Assembly (NCBI GenBank): GCA_003598055.1
Contig: QZKI01000022.1
Coordinates: 15,566 to 79,565, forward strand
Length of the DNA: 64,000 nt
Origin: Candidatus Abyssobacteria bacterium SURF_17
GTDB lineage: Bacteria > Abyssobacteria > SURF-5
Direction of reading: 5' to 3'
Shown: positions 14,045 through 52,431 of the stretch, one piece after another
How positions within the stretch are numbered: the stretch's first letter is position 1
Layout of the letters: each line of letters opens with the position of its first letter
Program-made: the position numbers and the translations under genes
The notes under the pieces: model-generated
Database searches by the model: none
Told to the model about the DNA's origin: nothing
Seen by the model: the letters and a program-made list of their open reading frames with translations, nothing else

Positions 14045-14127
14045 CCGACGTCCGAAGGCCGTGCACGAGAGAATGAAGGGGCGCATATGCAATGCGCCCC
14101 TTCTTGGCTTCATGAGCGGGAGAATCT

Positions 14128-31931: not shown

Positions 31932-32102
31932 GAATTTCCTCCGTTTGATGGTTTTCTATCGGGGTCAATGGTGCGCGTTGATTATACCATCGGGCTGAAC
32001 GATATCCAAAAAATCCTGCTGAAAGAAGAATGGGGCGGTATAGACGGAAAGGGCGACCCTGCGGGGCCGCCCTTTTGTTGCATGCCTCGGCGCGTTAGCT
32101 GC

Positions 32103-33233
32103 TCAGATTTTTTCCAGAGGCCGCTTCTGGCCGGCCATTTCGTTCTCCGATGCTACCTTCAATCGTAATTCCCTCGGGGATGCAAAAATCGGTTCGCGCT
32201 CGAGCCGTTCGAGCCTGAGGGCCTCGGTCGGGCACGTGACCGTGCACGCTCCACAGCCCATGCAGCGGGTTTCATCAATTTGGGCTTTGTCGGCGCCGTC
32301 GGGCAGGGAGATTGCCTTGAAGAAACAGCGGTCAACGCATGTGGCGCACGCGGCGCAATCGTCGCTCACCCGCGCGACGAAGTTGGAGCGAGCAAATGCC
32401 CTTGGATTGTCCCATCTCGTCAGGCCGCGCGTGATGGAGCAGCAGCAGCCGCAGCAGAAGCAGATGACGCCATCTTTCATCTCGACGGCGTTATCGGTCA
32501 TGACGACGAGCCCGAGGTCTCGCATTTCTTCGGCAAATTTTTTTGCTTCTTCCCGCGTCACCTGTTTGCCATCGCCGCGGCCGACCATGAGCATTGCAGG
32601 CATGCCCACGAACAGGCACGATCCCACGGGATACTTATCCTTGCACTCGCGGATTCCGAGCTTGTCGGTCCGGTTGCGGCACGGGCACGGTGCCAGCGCG
32701 AGCGCTCCCAAGTTGGCCTGGTCCAAGAACACATCGAGTTCCTCATGAGAAAGCACCTGCTGGCCCCCTGAAATTGACTGGTCCACGGGCACGGCCCGGC
32801 GCTGTGGAGTACCTTTCGCCGACGATTCATAATAGCGGTAGAAGCCGTCCTTAATGTAGTACTGCTGGTACAAACGGCCAGCTTTCATGGCATCTTCGTC
32901 ATCGGCATTTCGAAATGGGTGATAATTGACCAGAAGCGGGATTACCGGAAGCATGTATTGTCCGCCGAATCCGATAATTACGCCTCTTTCCGTCAGTCGC
33001 CCGAGAACTTCTTCGACTTCACTGACAGGTTTCCCGGCCCTCTCAGCGACCTCTTCCGCCGTCAAACGGTTCGGGTCGACCGAAAGGAACGAAGCCACCT
33101 CTGCTTCTTCGGGTTTCAAAAGAATCTGAAGATACTCGAGAAAAGCCGGAGAGAAATCTCCGTCTACCTTCGGCACGCCCGTGATGTTCATGTCAAGCTT
33201 TTCGGCGAGCGTTTTGTATGGAGACGTCGTCAT
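32103..33233 (-). CDS. Fe-S protein: N-terminal winged-helix-like domain + Cys-cluster (CPC..C..CFCCGCCC) + two CxxCxxCxxxCP ferredoxin motifs (paralog 1, divergent)
   Basis: 376 aa. Ferredoxin motifs CAACATCVDRC and CMGCGACTVTCP. Shares domain order and about one third identity with the next two genes. Confidence 0.6.
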   Translation of the reverse strand: MTTSPYKTLAEKLDMNITGVPKVDGDFSPAFLEYLQILLKPEEAEVASFLSVDPNRLTAEEVAERAGKPVSEVEEVLGRLTERGVIIGFGGQYMLPVIPLLVNYHPFRNADDEDAMKAGRLYQQYYIKDGFYRYYESSAKGTPQRRAVPVDQSISGGQQVLSHEELDVFLDQANLGALALAPCPCRNRTDKLGIRECKDKYPVGSCLFVGMPAMLMVGRGDGKQVTREEAKKFAEEMRDLGLVVMTDNAVEMKDGVICFCCGCCCSITRGLTRWDNPRAFARSNFVARVSDDCAACATCVDRCFFKAISLPDGADKAQIDETRCMGCGACTVTCPTEALRLERLEREPIFASPRELRLKVASENEMAGQKRPLEKI

Positions 33234-33309
33234 TACCTTCTCCTCCTGATACCATCAGTTTGCTTTGCGAGTTAGCCCATAGCCGTTTCGAGGGGCAACG
33301 CAATGGAGC

Positions 33310-34413
33310 CTAAATCAGCCCTTCGAGAGTGCGGCCCGTCTTCTGTGCCTTTTCCATTGTCCAGGTGATCATGTTTTCCGGCGGGACGTCGATGTGCTCT
33401 TCATCCTTGCGTACAAGTGAGAGCGCTCCGCTGGGACACGTGACCACGCACACGCCGCACCCGATGCAGCGGTCTTGGTTTACTTCATAGTATTCGCTCC
33501 GCGATTCGATGGCCCCAACAGGGCATCGCTCATCGGCGCAGACGCCGCATGCGACGCATGTTTCCGGGTCGATGTTTGCCAGGTAATTGGATTTCGCAAG
33601 CATATGAGGCGATTTCGCCATCTTCACGCCGCGCAGGATCGCGCAGCAGCACGTGCAACAGTTGCAGATGAACACGTGGTCGTCCTGCACATTCCACGAA
33701 TTGTGCACGAGGCCTTCTTCCTCCGCCTTCTTGAGCAGTTCGAGCACTTCTTGCTTCGTTGCTTTTCGCGCGCCGCGGTACTCGATGTCGAACCCGTGCG
33801 GGTCGGGCGAGAAGGCGATGCAGTTGTTCATCGTCCTGTTGCAGCCTTTGCCGATGATCTTCATTTCCTTGCGGCAGATGCAGTCGGAAACAGCCCATGA
33901 TTGGGCTTTCTCGACCATGTTTGAGACTTTCTCGAACGGGAGCACGGTGAGCTCGTTCGGAATCGCCTGCTCTACGGGATACACCCGTATTTGTGCCGGC
34001 GCTTCCTTTCCCACGTGCTCGATGAACGCCTCTTCAAGGTATTGCTCGAACAGCTCGACGTATTCCTTGTCGAGCCGCGCGAGCTGAAACTCGTGAATCC
34101 CGAGAATGAACGGGAACGCGCTGTACATGCGGCTTTCCGCCGGCCCCATTCCCATGAGCTGGCCCTTTGAGGTCATCCTTTCGAGGATTTCGGCCATTTT
34201 CTTCGGGTCGCGGCCCAACCGCTCGGTTACCTGCTCGGCTGTCTCCGGCACCAATTTCATTTGTGATGCGACTTCGGCCTCCTCCTCCGTGAAAATCTTC
34301 TTGAGGATTCTTATCTCGACACCGCTCTCGGTCTTCGGATACCCGTGCGGCATCGCTTCGAGATGTTCGGCTAATTTCTGATAACTCCCTTTGCTCATGA
34401 ATCGTCCCTCCAA
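33310..34413 (-). CDS. Fe-S protein, winged-helix + Cys-cluster (CNCCTCCC) + 2x[4Fe-4S] ferredoxin motifs (paralog 2)
   Basis: 367 aa. Motifs CVACGVCADERCP and CIGCGVCVVTCP. Very high identity to paralog 3, roughly 80% or more by eye. Confidence 0.6.
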   Translation of the reverse strand: MEGRFMSKGSYQKLAEHLEAMPHGYPKTESGVEIRILKKIFTEEEAEVASQMKLVPETAEQVTERLGRDPKKMAEILERMTSKGQLMGMGPAESRMYSAFPFILGIHEFQLARLDKEYVELFEQYLEEAFIEHVGKEAPAQIRVYPVEQAIPNELTVLPFEKVSNMVEKAQSWAVSDCICRKEMKIIGKGCNRTMNNCIAFSPDPHGFDIEYRGARKATKQEVLELLKKAEEEGLVHNSWNVQDDHVFICNCCTCCCAILRGVKMAKSPHMLAKSNYLANIDPETCVACGVCADERCPVGAIESRSEYYEVNQDRCIGCGVCVVTCPSGALSLVRKDEEHIDVPPENMITWTMEKAQKTGRTLEGLI

Positions 34414-34455
34414 GCAACAAAACTCTCGTTCCGTTACAATAAGAATTTTCGGTCG

Positions 34456-35571
34456 TTATATCAGGCCTTCCATGGTGCGGCCGGTTTTCTGCGCTTTTTC
34501 CATTGTCCAGGCGACAATGTTATCGGGCGGAATGTCGATTTCGGCCTCGTCTTTCCTGACGAGCGAGAGCGCGCCGCTCGGGCACGTGACCACGCACACG
34601 CCGCAGCCGATGCAGCGCTCGCGATTTACTTCATAATGCTCGTTGCGCGCGTCGATTGCCTGCATCGGACATCTCTCGTCGGCGCACACGCCGCAGGCAG
34701 CACAGGTGTCCGCATCAATCTGTGCGTAGTAATTCGACCTAGCCGCGAAATTAGGCGCCTTCTTTATTCCGCGAAGCACGAGGCAGCAGCATGTGCAGCA
34801 GTTGCAGACAAACACATGGCTGTCCTGCACGTTCCACGAAGTGTGCACGAGACCTTCCTCCTCCGCCTTCTTGAGCAGTTCGAGCACTTCTTCCTTCGAG
34901 GCCTTCCGCGCGCCGCGATAATCGATGTCGAACCCATGCGGGTCCGCTGAAAATGCGATGCAGTTATTCATCGTAGCGCCGCATCCCTCGCCCAATATCT
35001 GCTTCTCCTTGCGACAAATGCAATCAGCTACGGCCCAGGCCTGAGCCTTCTCGACCATGCTTGAAACTTTTTCGAAGGGGAGCACGGTGAGTTCGGCTGT
35101 TATTGCCTGCTCCACGGGATAAATACGGACCTGGGACGGCGCTTCCTTCCCCACTGCGTCGGCATAAGCCTCCTCGAAATACTGCTCGAACAACTCTGCA
35201 TATTCCCTGTCAACTCGCGGCAATTGAAACTCGTGGACGCCGGCAATAAAGGGGAATGCACTGTACATGCGACCATCCTTAGGGCCCATCCCCATAAGCT
35301 GCCCTTTGGACGTCATCCTTTCCAGTAACTCGGCCATCTCCTTCGGCTCACGGCCGAGACGCTCGGCCACCTGGTCTGCATTCTCCGGCATCAGCTTCAT
35401 CTGCGACGCGACTTCGGCTTCCTCTTTCGTGAAAATCTTCTTCAAGATTCTTATCTCAATCCCGCTCTTGGTCTTCGGAAACCCCTGCGGCATCGCGTTG
35501 AGATGTTCGGCTAGGTTCCTGTACGTGTCTTTACTCATAGCTGTCTCCCTCCAAAGGACACCAATGGCCAC
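34456..35571 (-). CDS. Fe-S protein, winged-helix + Cys-cluster + 2x[4Fe-4S] ferredoxin motifs (paralog 3)
   Basis: 371 aa. Near-identical architecture and sequence to paralog 2, suggesting a recent tandem duplication. Confidence 0.6.
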   Translation of the reverse strand: MAIGVLWRETAMSKDTYRNLAEHLNAMPQGFPKTKSGIEIRILKKIFTKEEAEVASQMKLMPENADQVAERLGREPKEMAELLERMTSKGQLMGMGPKDGRMYSAFPFIAGVHEFQLPRVDREYAELFEQYFEEAYADAVGKEAPSQVRIYPVEQAITAELTVLPFEKVSSMVEKAQAWAVADCICRKEKQILGEGCGATMNNCIAFSADPHGFDIDYRGARKASKEEVLELLKKAEEEGLVHTSWNVQDSHVFVCNCCTCCCLVLRGIKKAPNFAARSNYYAQIDADTCAACGVCADERCPMQAIDARNEHYEVNRERCIGCGVCVVTCPSGALSLVRKDEAEIDIPPDNIVAWTMEKAQKTGRTMEGLI

Positions 35572-35637
35572 CGGCGTTCTCTACCATCCACATGGCAAAC
35601 CACCGCGCTTGCAAGTCGGCCGGGCCAGAGGAACTCT

Positions 35638-36300
35638 TCATTCGAATCCTTCTGTCTTCGGCTCGGGTAGTGTCTCTCGTATTTCCTCCTGTCTGTTCGT
35701 TGCCTGTTTACCCTCGTGTGTCAACCATCCCTCTATCAATTGGTGCAGCATATCGATGTTGCGCTCCATGATTTGCGGGTCTTTGTGAGTTTTGCGGAGT
35801 AAGAACATTCCTTGAGTTTGGGCAAGCACGAATTCGGCAATCTGGCTTGAGGGCAATTGCTCCCGAAATATGCCTGCTTGCTTTCCCTCTTCAAAGCAAT
35901 GCTCGAGTCGGTCTGCGCCTGCGCGGAAGAACGCGCTCAACGCCTGCCGCAGTGGCTCATGGATCGCACTCATCTCCTGCGCCAGATTTCCGAATGGACA
36001 TCCGAGTTCACCCAGCGGAGAGGTTCCAAGGGCGAGGATTCCGTCGAGGAAAGCATATATTCGTTGGAGAGGATTGAGTGCTGGATTGTCGAGGGATGGC
36101 TCAATCACGCGACCATAAAACCACTGCATTCTCCCGGTGAGCACCTCGAAGCCGAGCTGTTCTTTGCTGTCGAAATGGTAGTAGAAGTTGCTCTTGGTGA
36201 CGGAAGCGATGTCGAGGATATCCTGGATGCTGGTGTTATTGAAGCCCTTGGTATGAATAAGCTTAGCGGCTTCGATGAGGATTTTCTGTTTGGCGCTCAT
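35638..36300 (-). CDS. TetR/AcrR family transcriptional regulator
   Basis: N-terminal HTH ILIEAAKLIHTKGFNNTSIQDILDIASVTKSNFYYHF. 220 aa. Confidence 0.85.
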   Translation of the reverse strand: MSAKQKILIEAAKLIHTKGFNNTSIQDILDIASVTKSNFYYHFDSKEQLGFEVLTGRMQWFYGRVIEPSLDNPALNPLQRIYAFLDGILALGTSPLGELGCPFGNLAQEMSAIHEPLRQALSAFFRAGADRLEHCFEEGKQAGIFREQLPSSQIAEFVLAQTQGMFLLRKTHKDPQIMERNIDMLHQLIEGWLTHEGKQATNRQEEIRETLPEPKTEGFE

Positions 36301-36370
36301 TGATGTCCTCGCGTGAGTAGTACTGACTGGTTGGTCCTAATGATATCACCCGTTCTGGAATCTGTCAAGT

Positions 36371-36456
36371 CTTTTTTTCATTCTTTTTTTCAGTCTTTTT
36401 TTCCGTGCCGCTTTCGTCCCGGGAATTTGCCCGGGAATTTGCCCGGGAATTTGATT
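36371..36456. repeat. three T7 tracts phased at 12 bp, followed by a 3x tandem 12-bp direct repeat (CCCGGGAATTTG)
   Basis: TCTTTTTTT occurs three times (36371-36401). CCCGGGAATTTG occurs three times head-to-tail (36416-36451), then TTGACG. Located in the divergent TetR/ADC-like intergenic region. Confidence 0.5.
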
Positions 36457-36481
36457 GACGAAGCATATGCATCGAGCGTAC

Positions 36482-36526
36482 GGGCGAACCTTGTGTTCGC
36501 CCATGGGCGCAATGAATTACGCCCCC
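36482..36526. repeat. pair of REP-like hairpins (GGGCGAACCTTGTGTTCGCCC; GGGCGCAATGAATTACGCCCC)
   Basis: GC stems with an AATGAATT loop, related to the TGCGAATAAATTCGCA and GGGCGCA...TGCGCCCC families. Confidence 0.4.
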
Positions 36527-36773
36527 CTGAGTCTGTCCCACAATTGCGCTTCATCCCCTTTCTCGCCTGACATTCTTTGCGCCCTTTGCGTCTTTGCGGT
36601 TAGAAAACTCCTTGGGCAAGAGCAGGTTCGCCCCCGCAACTGACCTCCTCATAATGTTTGATGCATTTTCCAGTCTCATCTATGAGCAATTTCGACGACT
36701 TAACATTGCATTCCGAAAAGGTTGCTGACAAACTTAGAGAAATTACATTCAGTCACGAATACTGTTCGGCGCT

Positions 36774-37583
36774 TTGGCGGAAGGAGAGGTCAGCATGGGT
36801 TTTGTGAAATCGTATGAGGAGATAGCGAAGGCGTACCGTGAGACAGGGGAATTCTATGATGCGGAGATGCTCGCGGTTGTGTGGGAGACGAAACCGGAAA
36901 TCGTCGCCAGGTTGCTGCCGCCGCCGCTCAAACCATCTTCCAGACCGCTGGCGCTCGCTTTTGTCGCGAATTATCCGAGGACCAACTTCGGCGTAACGTA
37001 CCTTGAGGCCGCGCTGTTTCTGCGGGCTGAGTTAAACGGCGAGGCAGGCGTTTACTGCCTTTCGATGCCGGTGACGAACGACATGGCGATGGCCGGCGGC
37101 CGCGAGGTATACGGGTATCCAAAGAAGATTGCCAGAATCGAGTTGAACCGCAACGGGCAGGATGTCGAGGGCTGGGCCGAGCGACATGGTGTCCGTTTCT
37201 TTGAAATAAGGGCAAAGCTGACCGGCAAGTTCAATGTTGAGGGAGCTCAGAACACCTTTTCAGAGATTCTGAGTGGTAACGGTGAATCTGTTGTGGTCGC
37301 ATACAACTTCAAGCATTTTCCCGCGCCCGAGGGTGGCGCATTCGATTATCATCCCCGTCTCATTCGCGAAGAGGTGGAGTTCCGCCCGAGCTCGATTGAG
37401 GGCGGCGAGGCTGAGATCGTGATGAAGCCGTCGGATTTCGACCCGTGGGCCGAGGTGGAGGTGGTCAAGCTTCTCGGCGCGATTCACACCAAAGGTAACA
37501 ACTCGATGCAAAAAGGCAAGGTTGTCGCCGAGGCAGACCCGGCCGAGTTTGCGCCGTATGCGTTTCTGAAATGGGATATGTAG
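36774..37583 (+). CDS. acetoacetate decarboxylase (ADC) family protein
   Basis: 269 aa. ADC-like beta-cone fold features including a GYPKK segment (candidate Schiff-base Lys) and a size typical of the family. Alternative start at 36792 (MGFVKSY). Confidence 0.55.
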   Translation: MAEGEVSMGFVKSYEEIAKAYRETGEFYDAEMLAVVWETKPEIVARLLPPPLKPSSRPLALAFVANYPRTNFGVTYLEAALFLRAELNGEAGVYCLSMPVTNDMAMAGGREVYGYPKKIARIELNRNGQDVEGWAERHGVRFFEIRAKLTGKFNVEGAQNTFSEILSGNGESVVVAYNFKHFPAPEGGAFDYHPRLIREEVEFRPSSIEGGEAEIVMKPSDFDPWAEVEVVKLLGAIHTKGNNSMQKGKVVAEADPAEFAPYAFLKWDM

Positions 37584-37888: not shown

Positions 37889-39235
37889 TCACGCCGAGAA
37901 ATATCGTTCCTGTGATTCTTCGAGCGTTTCGCGCAGCACGCGCATGGCTTCGTCTATCTGCTTCTCGGTTATGATGAAGGGCGGCGCCATCATGATGTGG
38001 TCGCCGCGCCCTTGCTCGTCTTCGTAGTAACCCGGGTAGAAGAACACTCCTTTCATCATGCACTGCATGATGATGTCCATCTTCACCTTCTTCTCCTTCG
38101 GGAACGGCTCTTTCGTTTTCTTGTCTTTCACGAACTCGATGGCCCACAGCAATCCTTTGCCGCGCACATCGCCGACCATGGGCAGCGACATGAGCTGGAG
38201 CAGGCTTTCGTGGAGATAGTTGCCCATTTGCTCGGCGCGCGCGATGAGCTTCTCCTTCTCGATGATTTTCTGAACTTCATTGCCGACCGCGCAGGAGAGC
38301 GGATGCGCCGAGAATGTGTATAAATGCTGGAACTCGACCTCGTTGTTCTCGAACAACTCGACGAGCTCGCTGTGAACCGCCATGCCGGCGAGCGGCGCGT
38401 ATGCGCTGCCCACGCCCTTCGCAAACGTGGCGATGTCGGGCACGACGCCGAAATGGTCCATCCCCATGTTCCTGCCGGTGCGGCCGAAGCCGGTCACGAC
38501 CTCATCCGCAATGAAGACGACGTTGTGCTTGGTGCACGTCTCGCGGATTATGGGATAGTATTCGGGCGGCGGCACCGTTCCACCCGACGCCGAGGCAACA
38601 ATCGGCTCCGCAATGAATGCGGCGACCGTGTCCGGTCCCTCGGCGAGGATTTTCTTCTCTAGAGCGAGCGCGCAGTCGATGTCACAGTTCGGATATTCTT
38701 TGTCGAAGGGACAGCGGTAGCAGTAGCATGCTTCGATTTTCGGGTTGTTCCACAGCATCGGCGTAAAATCCCGCATGCGCGGCTTCACATCGCCGACGGA
38801 GAGCGTGGCAAATGTCATTCCGTGATAGCTCAGTTTTCGCGAAACGACCTTGTATTTCGACGTCCTCCCTGCGACGACGTGATACTGGCGCGAAAACTTG
38901 ATGGCCGCCTCGTTGGCCTCGGAGCCGCCCGAACAGAAGTAGATGCGGTTGAGATCCTTCGGCATGAGTTTCTTGATTCGCTTTACGAGTTCGATTCTCG
39001 CTTCCGACGCGAACACGGGCAGGATATATGAGACTTCCTCGAGCTGCTTCTGTGCGGCCTTCGCAACTTCCTTGCGACCGTGGCCGATGTTGACGGCCAT
39101 TGGTCCGCCGGAAAAATCAAGCAGCTTTCGCCCGTAGTTATCGTGCAGGTACACGCCTTCGGCCTTCGTGATGAGGATTGGCGGCACATGCGGGTGCTTG
39201 ATGAACATATTGTCTACAATGTCCTGCATCTCCAT
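37889..39235 (-). CDS. class III (PLP fold type I) aminotransferase
   Basis: 448 aa. The GGPMAVNIGHG, Lys-bearing FIADEVVTGFGRTG and TFAKG region are typical of omega-aminotransferases. Confidence 0.85.
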   Translation of the reverse strand: MEMQDIVDNMFIKHPHVPPILITKAEGVYLHDNYGRKLLDFSGGPMAVNIGHGRKEVAKAAQKQLEEVSYILPVFASEARIELVKRIKKLMPKDLNRIYFCSGGSEANEAAIKFSRQYHVVAGRTSKYKVVSRKLSYHGMTFATLSVGDVKPRMRDFTPMLWNNPKIEACYCYRCPFDKEYPNCDIDCALALEKKILAEGPDTVAAFIAEPIVASASGGTVPPPEYYPIIRETCTKHNVVFIADEVVTGFGRTGRNMGMDHFGVVPDIATFAKGVGSAYAPLAGMAVHSELVELFENNEVEFQHLYTFSAHPLSCAVGNEVQKIIEKEKLIARAEQMGNYLHESLLQLMSLPMVGDVRGKGLLWAIEFVKDKKTKEPFPKEKKVKMDIIMQCMMKGVFFYPGYYEDEQGRGDHIMMAPPFIITEKQIDEAMRVLRETLEESQERYFSA

Positions 39236-52383: not shown

Positions 52384-52431
52384 AAGGGCGCAATAAATTA
52401 CGCCCCTCTGCGCCTGCCGTAGGGGCGCGAT
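52384..52431. repeat. REP-like GC hairpins with AATAAATT loop (GGGCGCAATAAATTACGCCCC ... GTAGGGGCGCGATTCATCGCGCCC)
   Basis: Links the GC-stem and AT-loop families: GTAG head, GGGCGC stems, AATAAATT loop. Confidence 0.4.

Follow-up and report, generated by a model that had tools for sequence, protein, structure and literature searches.

Tandem 12-bp repeat arrays in the upstream region of a predicted autoregulated tetR promoter of Candidatus Abyssubacteria SURF_17

Two short tandem arrays of equal period lie close together in the spacer between a tetR-family repressor gene and a divergent gene of the acetoacetate decarboxylase-like (ADC) family in Candidatus Abyssubacteria SURF_17, a lineage described in PMC6121073. 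Do these arrays belong to a regulatory region, and how did they arise? The question was addressed in a stretch of 64,000 nucleotides of one contig, referred to here as the window, whose numbering is used throughout. The window is identical to part of JGI contig Ga0104761_1000059 (107 kb, metagenome 3300007354), and the TetR that it encodes matches the SURF_17 protein with 100% identity. The most fitting description of the feature is an upstream region of the predicted autoregulated tetR promoter that has been enlarged by repeats; it is small in size and specific to one lineage. The features of the locus are collected in Table 1.

Table 1. Features of the tetR/ADC locus in window coordinates
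Feature	Position	Strand	Description
GC-rich hairpin	32048-32075		After the last Fe-S paralog gene
Three paralogous genes of ~370-aa proteins	32103..35571	-	C-terminal 2x[4Fe-4S] domain; downstream of tetR
tetR-family repressor gene	35638..36300	-	220 aa; Pfam TetR_N + TetR_C_13; first gene of an apparent operon
Candidate TetR operator	36339..36318	- (reading)	22-bp imperfect palindrome TAGGACCAACCAGTCAGTACTA; abuts the -10 and spans the predicted start
tetR core promoter (predicted)	36340..36368	-	TTGACA-17-TGaTATCAT
Array 1	36368-36403	- (for promoter)	AGTCTTTTTTTC x3 (GAAAAAAAGACT x3 on the tetR strand); period 12, 3.0 copies, 91% matches
Array 2	36418-36453		CCCGGGAATTTG x3; period 12, 3.0 copies, 100% identical; -85 to -120 of the tetR promoter
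Hairpin 1	36482-36502		GGGCGAAC-CTTGT-GTTCGCCC; 8 perfect pairs
Hairpin 2	36505-36524		GGGCGCAATGAATTACGCCC (GGGCG-N10-CGCCC); 8 pairs (one of them G-T) on the minus strand
Third, weaker array	36574-36598		TCTTTGCGC x2.9; 82% matches; same spacer
ADC-family gene	36795..37583	+	Pfam ADC 1e-54; start is the ATG at 36795
Class-III aminotransferase gene	37889-39235	-	Convergent with the ADC-family gene

Gene neighbourhood, promoter and candidate operator of tetR

The spacer separating the divergent tetR and ADC-family genes occupies positions 36301-36794 and measures 494 bp, not the 470 bp given in the initial annotation. On the minus strand, tetR and the three Fe-S paralogs apparently constitute one operon. 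With NCBIfam, neither the TetR nor the Fe-S proteins received a specific name, and the JGI label of the TetR orthologs is 'repressor of nem operon' (NemR-like). On the other side of the spacer, the ADC-family protein comprises 262 aa, the same length as its orthologs; the aminotransferase gene, which had been placed with it in one co-oriented cluster, is in fact convergent with it. An Rfam scan of positions 35500-37500 (E <= 1) yielded no match. The open reading frame at 36313-36570 was considered as a coding sequence and rejected, since it has no family match and its frame is not kept in the closest relative, locus L002, with respect to which it is interrupted by one 4-nt and several 1-nt indels.

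The module formed by tetR and the Fe-S paralogs was found to be conserved in the fetched loci, which represent several candidate phyla; Abyssubacteria SURF_5 and a MAG with the label Lindowbacteria are among them. The gene upstream of tetR, on the other hand, was different in every relative. The ADC genes closest to that of SURF_17 (86-89% identical) are preceded by a co-directional gene, which encodes Peptidase_M19 in three of the loci (L013-L015), and they are followed by a convergent gene where the contig reaches far enough; none of them has a divergent tetR. Given these differing tetR neighbours and the lack of a divergent tetR beside the closest ADC genes, the adjacency of TetR and ADC is, as judged from gene order, specific to the SURF_17 lineage, and the divergent pair is not kept as a unit in the relatives. 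A second TetR operator near the ADC gene was not found in the whole window, and no promoter or operator linking the ADC gene to the arrays was recognised. We also considered whether the segment 36530-36603 might be what remains of the 3' end of a Peptidase_M19 gene, with which it shares the colinear matches TCCCACAA and TTTGCGGTTA. This was rejected as unsupported: a tblastn search for such a relic in the spacer returned nothing, and the score of the local DNA alignment was reached by 124 of 1596 random window segments.

The consensus scan detected a single promoter match in the region, located on the minus strand in front of tetR. It consists of the -35 hexamer TTGACA (36368..36363), a 17-nt spacer and the extended -10 element TGaTATCAT (36348..36340), and scores 11/12 with the extended -10 (TG). 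Transcription is predicted to start near position 36333, from which all array positions given below are counted. The pattern of the 22-bp palindrome that follows the -10 occurs only once in the 64-kb window, and a segment of 33 nt spanning the palindrome and the 5' leader is identical to L002 at all 33 positions.

For comparison, 23 further orthologous tetR loci were gathered via exact-protein look-ups and one metagenome scan. The same succession of -35, 17 nt, -10 and palindrome was present in the resulting 24 orthologous loci, from several candidate phyla: TTGAC(A/T), 17 nt, TAnnnT and then, a few nucleotides further on, the 22-bp palindrome, whose consensus across the 24 promoters is TAGGACCAACCGGTTGGTCCTA and which is perfect in L021 and L022. 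Palindromes are the typical binding sites of TetR-family proteins, and an operator placed over the transcription start is the classic geometry of TetR-family self-repression. Since this layout recurs in all 24 loci (phylogenetic footprinting), it is the palindrome at 36318-36339, rather than the repeats, that is the probable TetR operator. The comparison also provides a usable promoter/operator model for the TetR and Fe-S module, TTGACA-17-TGnTAnnAT followed by TAGGACCAACCGGTTGGTCCTA. The promoter, its start site and the alpha-CTD contacts considered below are predictions, made by analogy with E. coli-type RNA polymerase.

Tandem arrays and hairpins of the spacer

Arrays 1 and 2 were called by Tandem Repeats Finder and by a second repeat search, and the third, weaker array by Tandem Repeats Finder. 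Arrays 1 and 2 are the two top-scoring tandem repeats of the window; they are unrelated in sequence and are separated by a gap of 14 nt. The expected number of exact 36-nt arrays with period 12 in 64 kb is ~2e-10, and the search for the 12-mers of both arrays elsewhere in the window revealed only near-matches at chance level. The middle copy of array 1 reads ATTC, which accounts for its 91% matches. The T7 runs of this array (36372-78, 36384-90 and 36396-402) correspond on the tetR strand to A7 tracts at -39/-45, -51/-57 and -63/-69, and the promoter-proximal unit shares the first T of the tetR -35 hexamer. The T7 tracts and the three-copy 12-mer reported in the initial annotation are therefore real, and the positions noted for them (36371-36401 and 36416-36451) were right within 1-3 nt, with array 2 as a whole located 2 nt farther right.

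Array 2 contains CCCGGG, a sequence that is not avoided in the window, where 13 other sites were counted; for this reason array 2 is not notable as a cluster of restriction sites. When single-stranded, the array can fold into a CCCGGG/CCCGGG hairpin (-10.9 kcal/mol, z = -2.3), which may favour slippage. The array had been described as running into TTGACG, and this hexamer does lie just past it, at 36455-36460, but as a promoter element it has no -10 partner at a distance of 16-18 nt. Neither sigma70 promoters (consensus scan) nor sigma54 promoters were found on the plus strand of the spacer. No promoter, operator, sigma54 site or RNA family was found for array 2; apart from introducing 24 bp of extra spacer, this array most likely serves no function.

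A genome-wide scan of 596 Gb for two tandem CCCGGGAATTTG units produced three unrelated matches: one within a coding region of Pseudarthrobacter, one upstream of a thymidylate-kinase-like gene in an Acidobacteriaceae MAG, and one consisting of six degenerate units between divergent genes in a Bacteroidota MAG. By our own estimate, three matches in a data set of this size are compatible with chance among 12-nt tandem duplications.

The two hairpins described as REP-like beside the arrays are both present (Table 1). Their folding energies of -15 and -16.8 kcal/mol, with z = -4.4 and -4.0 against shuffled sequences, are those of stable GC-rich hairpins such as REP elements form. Membership in a dispersed family was supported for hairpin 2, which belongs to a group of GC-rich palindromes, but not for hairpin 1, of which no second copy was detected in the 64-kb window. 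Hairpin 2 is identical at 19 of 20 positions to 52386-52405 (blastn of 36502-35 against 52383-416: 85% over 34 nt, E 5e-5), and its core, GGGCGCA-loop-TGCGCCC, is shared with hairpins at 14079, 29753, 39947, 51015 and 61044. The 12-mer GCGCCCCTACAA has four exact matches in the window, and 11 matches with up to 2 mismatches, compared to 4.7 expected. Several members of the family continue with CTACAA. According to inspection of the ORF map, the members fall in gaps between genes, apparently at gene 3' ends, and they may be either REP-like elements or the usual terminator hairpins of this genome. Hairpins 1 and 2 would then be copies or relatives of the common GC-rich palindromes of the genome, here located between two transcription units. 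In addition, GGGCGAACCT at 36482 and AGGTTCGCCC at 36624-36633 form a 10-nt inverted pair, 132 nt apart.

Origin of the two arrays

The sole close relative that covers the region is L002, which comes from another metagenome, encodes a TetR 88% identical to that of SURF_17, and is placed on a contig ending 142 nt upstream of tetR. At the place of array 1 this locus carries a single GAAAAAACAC, and at the colinear place of array 2 a single CAATTTCGCGGG; its sequence across both places reads ...CAATTTCGCGGGagaaaggggccaGAAAAAACACTTGACA / ...cgttaatCAATTTCGCGGGagaaaggggccaGAAAAAACACTTGACA..., with one copy per unit. When both arrays of the window were collapsed to one unit each, the two sequences could be aligned end to end, interrupted only by three gaps of 1 nt and one of 4 nt. 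Upstream of the -35 hexamer the identity between the window and L002 is ~79% (own count), and at the third codon positions of tetR it is 73.5%. Among the 23 other orthologs, no exact tandem array of period 6-20 was detected within 260 nt upstream, in a test that is blind to imperfect arrays such as array 1.

As L002 carries one copy of each unit in a colinear context and no exact array was found in the 23 other orthologs, both arrays are, on this comparison, recent lineage-specific triplications, that is, gains of two units (+24 bp) each. Within the lineage, the comparison covers one assembly, the source contig of SURF_17, which was all that exact-protein look-ups returned; a metagenome scan with the 23-nt operator sequence gave no match, and it also missed the L002 contig, in which this 23-mer is present. 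Slipped-strand or template-slippage duplication would have made both arrays, and they would have arisen in a synteny breakpoint, a spacer with a near-neutral rate of evolution. Their equal period and copy number, at a distance of 14 nt, would be a coincidence under independent neutral slippage; otherwise either a local slippage hotspot or selection on the upstream region may be involved.

Possible effect of the arrays and comparison with known systems

The alpha-CTD of RNA polymerase contacts minor grooves with centres near -43 and -53, sites at -63 and farther upstream being available to it as well, and counts of A/T tracts in these subsites predict the strength of an UP element (PMC3326320). 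It has been shown experimentally that A/T tracts beside the -35 hexamer tune promoter output via alpha-CTD contacts and DNA shape (PMC4081817). Array 1 is situated where UP elements are found, at approximately -38 to -59 and directly upstream of a sigma70-type -35 hexamer, and its A-tracts extend over the -41..-43 and -51..-57 subsites. It matches 10 of the 14 specified positions of the -59..-38 UP consensus (own count). The AT fraction of the tetR promoter in the window is 0.8 at -38/-47 and 0.9 at -48/-57.

An A/T-rich proximal subsite is also common in the orthologous promoters. Runs of at least four A or T residues were present at roughly -37 to -49 in 14 of the 24, and the mean AT fraction was 0.63 at -38/-47, compared to 0.47-0.52 farther upstream. 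One of these promoters (L018) carries A5..T5..A6, a UP-like pattern without repeats. Array 1 is probably a UP-like element that was expanded by tandem triplication. The expansion would have multiplied a pre-existing proximal A-tract, from a single tract as in L002 to three with centres at -42, -54 and -66, and the A7 tracts would then occupy the proximal, distal and far-distal docking positions of the alpha-CTD. The third tract (centre -66) would be placed off the alpha-CTD face, because the spacing is 12 bp rather than ~10.5 bp.

The array would be expected to change, and probably to raise, the recruitment of RNA polymerase at the tetR promoter. The sign of this effect is uncertain, since A-tracts upstream of strong promoters can be inhibitory (Ellinger et al. 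1994, as cited in PMC4081817). Some intrinsic curvature would be added as well. In the initial annotation the A/T tracts were regarded as phased and bending. They are indeed sited where an influence on a promoter is possible, upstream of the tetR -35, but they are phased by 12 bp and not by 10.5 bp, so that their bends add only in part: the vector sum of three bends, each rotated by ~51 degrees per 12-bp step, amounts to ~2.3 single-tract bends (own calculation). TetR bound to its operator would still shut the tetR promoter off. Taken as a whole, we consider it reasonably likely that the feature represents the distal upstream portion of an autoregulated promoter of the sigma70 type, which serves tetR and apparently the three Fe-S genes.

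The same observations could be explained by pure mutational debris: both arrays and the third one would be neutral products of slippage, the position of array 1 would be incidental, and neither of the two promoters would experience a measurable effect. The confinement of the arrays to one lineage is in agreement with this explanation, as are the divergence of the upstream region at about the rate of third codon positions and the presence, in the same synteny-breakpoint spacer, of a third short array and orphan hairpins. However, what array 1 multiplies is exactly the A-tract of the proximal UP subsite, which is enriched in the orthologous promoters, and A-tracts at -43/-53 are known to affect sigma70 promoters (PMC4081817, PMC3326320). 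The proximity of the two best repeats also argues against it, since two independent repeats would lie within 14 nt of each other with a probability of ~0.002 over the whole window, or of ~0.01-0.02 on a rough, uncomputed estimate for non-coding DNA. We regard neutral debris as rather unlikely. Phase-variable contingency loci usually have units of 1-7 nt in many copies, at a position that is sensitive to length. A locus of this kind, in which slippage within the population alters the copy number of the 12-mers and tunes the tetR/Fe-S operon, would fit with repeats that are perfect or near-perfect, with a copy number that shifted at least once between lineages (1 versus 3), and with the placement of array 1 against the -35 hexamer, the position at which sabA of H. 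pylori has a tract whose length works as a rheostat (PMC4081817). Nevertheless, we regard phase variation as very unlikely, considering that three copies of a 12-nt unit imply low slippage rates compared to the classic repeats of 1-7 nt, and that the gene downstream is a self-repressed regulator and not a surface antigen. The more specific proposal that the arrays form a copy-number 'rheostat', in which UP subsites (array 1) and 12-bp spacers (array 2) are gained or lost through slippage, so that the TetR-gated Fe-S operon is tuned within a deep-subsurface population, is decidedly unlikely; if true, it would represent a contingency-type mechanism in a slow-growing uncultured lineage, with unusually long repeat units.

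The repeats might instead be bound by a protein, as operator or iteron-like sites for TetR or another regulator, e.g. a direct-repeat-binding response regulator. Three identical direct repeats upstream of a promoter would suit such a role, and tandem CCCGGGAATTTG units recur in three unrelated genomes, in one of them as six degenerate copies between divergent genes, although this number of matches in 596 Gb is within reach of chance by our own estimate. TetR is already accounted for by the conserved palindrome in the -10/+1 region: it is an inverted repeat over the core promoter and start that accompanies the regulator in all 24 loci, whereas the arrays are direct repeats at -37 to -120, outside the core promoter. 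Moreover, the two arrays differ in sequence, and the single units present in L002 could not serve as a direct-repeat site. Iterons are direct repeats of ~17-22 bp that occur in several copies in replication origins, beside a rep gene. Here the unit has only 12 bp and is present three times, the neighbours are tetR and the genes of the Fe-S, ADC-family and aminotransferase proteins on a 107-kb contig of chromosomal type, and neither a replication gene among the neighbouring genes examined nor origin features nearby were seen. With single-copy units in L002 and no exact array in the 23 other orthologs, the earlier interpretation of the repeats as iteron or operator arrays was not upheld, and protein-binding repeats of any kind are highly improbable. 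Insertion of the arrays as part of a mobile element (a MITE or a REP cluster), which the initial annotation had named as one outcome that would undo its reading, is barely credible. In its favour are the REP-like hairpins 30-70 nt away and the 10-nt inverted pair GGGCGAACCT/AGGTTCGCCC. However, the flanks of each array and the segment between them are colinear with L002, neither the 12-mers nor the surrounding spacer (hairpin 2 excepted) have further copies in the window, and the arrays are not flanked by terminal repeats or target duplications. This explanation was rejected on the grounds that the sequence is colinear with that of L002 and that further copies are lacking in the window.

UP-like A-tracts and promoter-proximal tandem repeats are both familiar, and the upstream region of the tetR promoter with its expanded repeats is a new and fairly ordinary instance of them. 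If our interpretation of array 1 holds, it offers a clear-cut natural case in which a promoter acquired distal UP-like subsites in a single step, through tandem duplication of its proximal A-tract, in a candidate lineage. Beyond that, it is an ordinary, lineage-specific irregularity of an intergenic spacer.

The locus resembles other autoregulated TetR-family promoters in that the repressor gene is the first of its operon and the 22-bp palindrome overlaps the start and is conserved alongside the regulator; it differs in that tandem arrays are present which are no part of the operator system, and, in contrast to NemR-like systems, the regulated genes are Fe-S paralogs and not nemA/gloA. With REP/BIME elements it has in common the GC-rich palindromic consensus of hairpin 2, found at at least six other apparently intergenic sites in 64 kb, while hairpin 1 is single in the window and both hairpins are without the CTACAA tail of the best family members. 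In the H. pylori sabA T-tract rheostat (PMC4081817), as in array 1, a repetitive T/A-rich element abuts the -35 and changes its length by slippage, and the expected mechanism, via alpha-CTD contacts and local DNA shape, is the same; the sabA element is a mononucleotide tract varying between strains, whereas here a 12-nt unit is present three times and varies at the level of lineages. In position, the locus resembles UP elements and upstream A-tract promoters such as E. coli rrnB P1 (Ross 1993, Estrem 1998 and Aiyar 1998, as cited in PMC4081817): the A-tracts described here directly precede a consensus -35 and occupy the proximal and distal alpha-CTD subsites, at about -42 and -54, and a proximal A/T tract is common among the orthologous promoters too. 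Compared to these elements, in which an A-tract is followed by a T-tract with a phasing of 10-11 bp, the predicted element of SURF_17 is built of three 12-bp units, is phased by 12 bp, and extends to a third tract at -66.

Predicted promoter and probable operator of tetR, and the genes behind it

A conserved promoter and operator model was found upstream of tetR in 24 loci from several candidate phyla: TTGAC(A/T)-17-TAnnnT and, behind it, the 22-bp palindrome TAGGACCAACCGGTTGGTCCTA. The loci listed for this model are the window, its closest relative L002, the Lindowbacteria-labelled locus L004, and the fetched loci L009, L010 and L018-L038. The window TetR comprises 220 aa, compared to ~193-197 aa in most orthologs, which lack its C-terminal extension of 26 residues.

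Two or three Fe-S paralogs are located behind tetR in the fetched loci; this order is seen in L004, L005, L009 and L010, where the fetched contigs are long enough. The N-terminal ~270 residues of the three paralogs in the window received no confident assignment in Pfam or NCBIfam, and the third paralog gave only weak, below-threshold matches of the HTH type. An internal repeat was observed in the second paralog gene.

Coordinates of the features in the window and in the fetched loci
Feature	Locus	Position	Strand	Remark
Three tandem Fe-S paralogs, ~370 aa	window	32103-35571	-	2x[4Fe-4S] domain at C-terminal end
21-bp unit x2, 85% matches	window	33895-33935		within second Fe-S paralog gene
C-terminal extension of TetR	window	35638-35715		3' end of tetR
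Conserved promoter and palindrome	window	36318-36368		layout kept in 24 loci
Short array TCTTTGCGC x2.9	window	36574-36598		tetR/ADC spacer
TTTCGTG-type unit runs	L004	236-290, 555-600		upstream of tetR
Six degenerate CCCGGGAATTTG copies	L008	3872-3947		Bacteroidota MAG DASVIU010000318.1
GGGCGCA-loop-TGCGCCC hairpins	window	14079, 29753, 29827, 39947, 51015, 52386, 52423, 61044		

Repeats within and outside the spacer

The short TCTTTGCGC array in the spacer resembles the unit runs of L004; no further copies were identified in the non-coding parts of the window. The 12-mer CCCGGGAATTTG also recurs elsewhere: its degenerate array in L008 separates divergent genes (lipoate-ligase-like and pyruvate dehydrogenase E1). 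Two-copy arrays were found within a coding region of Pseudarthrobacter and, in an Acidobacteriaceae MAG, ahead of a thymidylate-kinase-like gene. This recurrence in Bacteroidota, Pseudarthrobacter and Acidobacteriaceae genomes may be due to chance.

A family of GC-rich hairpins, often with CTACAA following, is scattered through the window, and its 12-mer GCGCCCCTACAA has four exact matches there. The hairpins, in some places arranged as tandem pairs, apparently occupy gaps at the 3' ends of genes. They represent either REP-like elements or terminators without T-tails.

The upstream partner of ADC

The region 36530-36794, upstream of the acetoacetate decarboxylase-like gene ADC, was compared with the loci of its closest orthologs (L012-L016). 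In these loci the upstream gene is co-directional, and in L013-L015 it encodes a Peptidase_M19. Since no Peptidase_M19 gene is present anywhere in the window, in this lineage ADC has become separated from the gene that usually precedes it.
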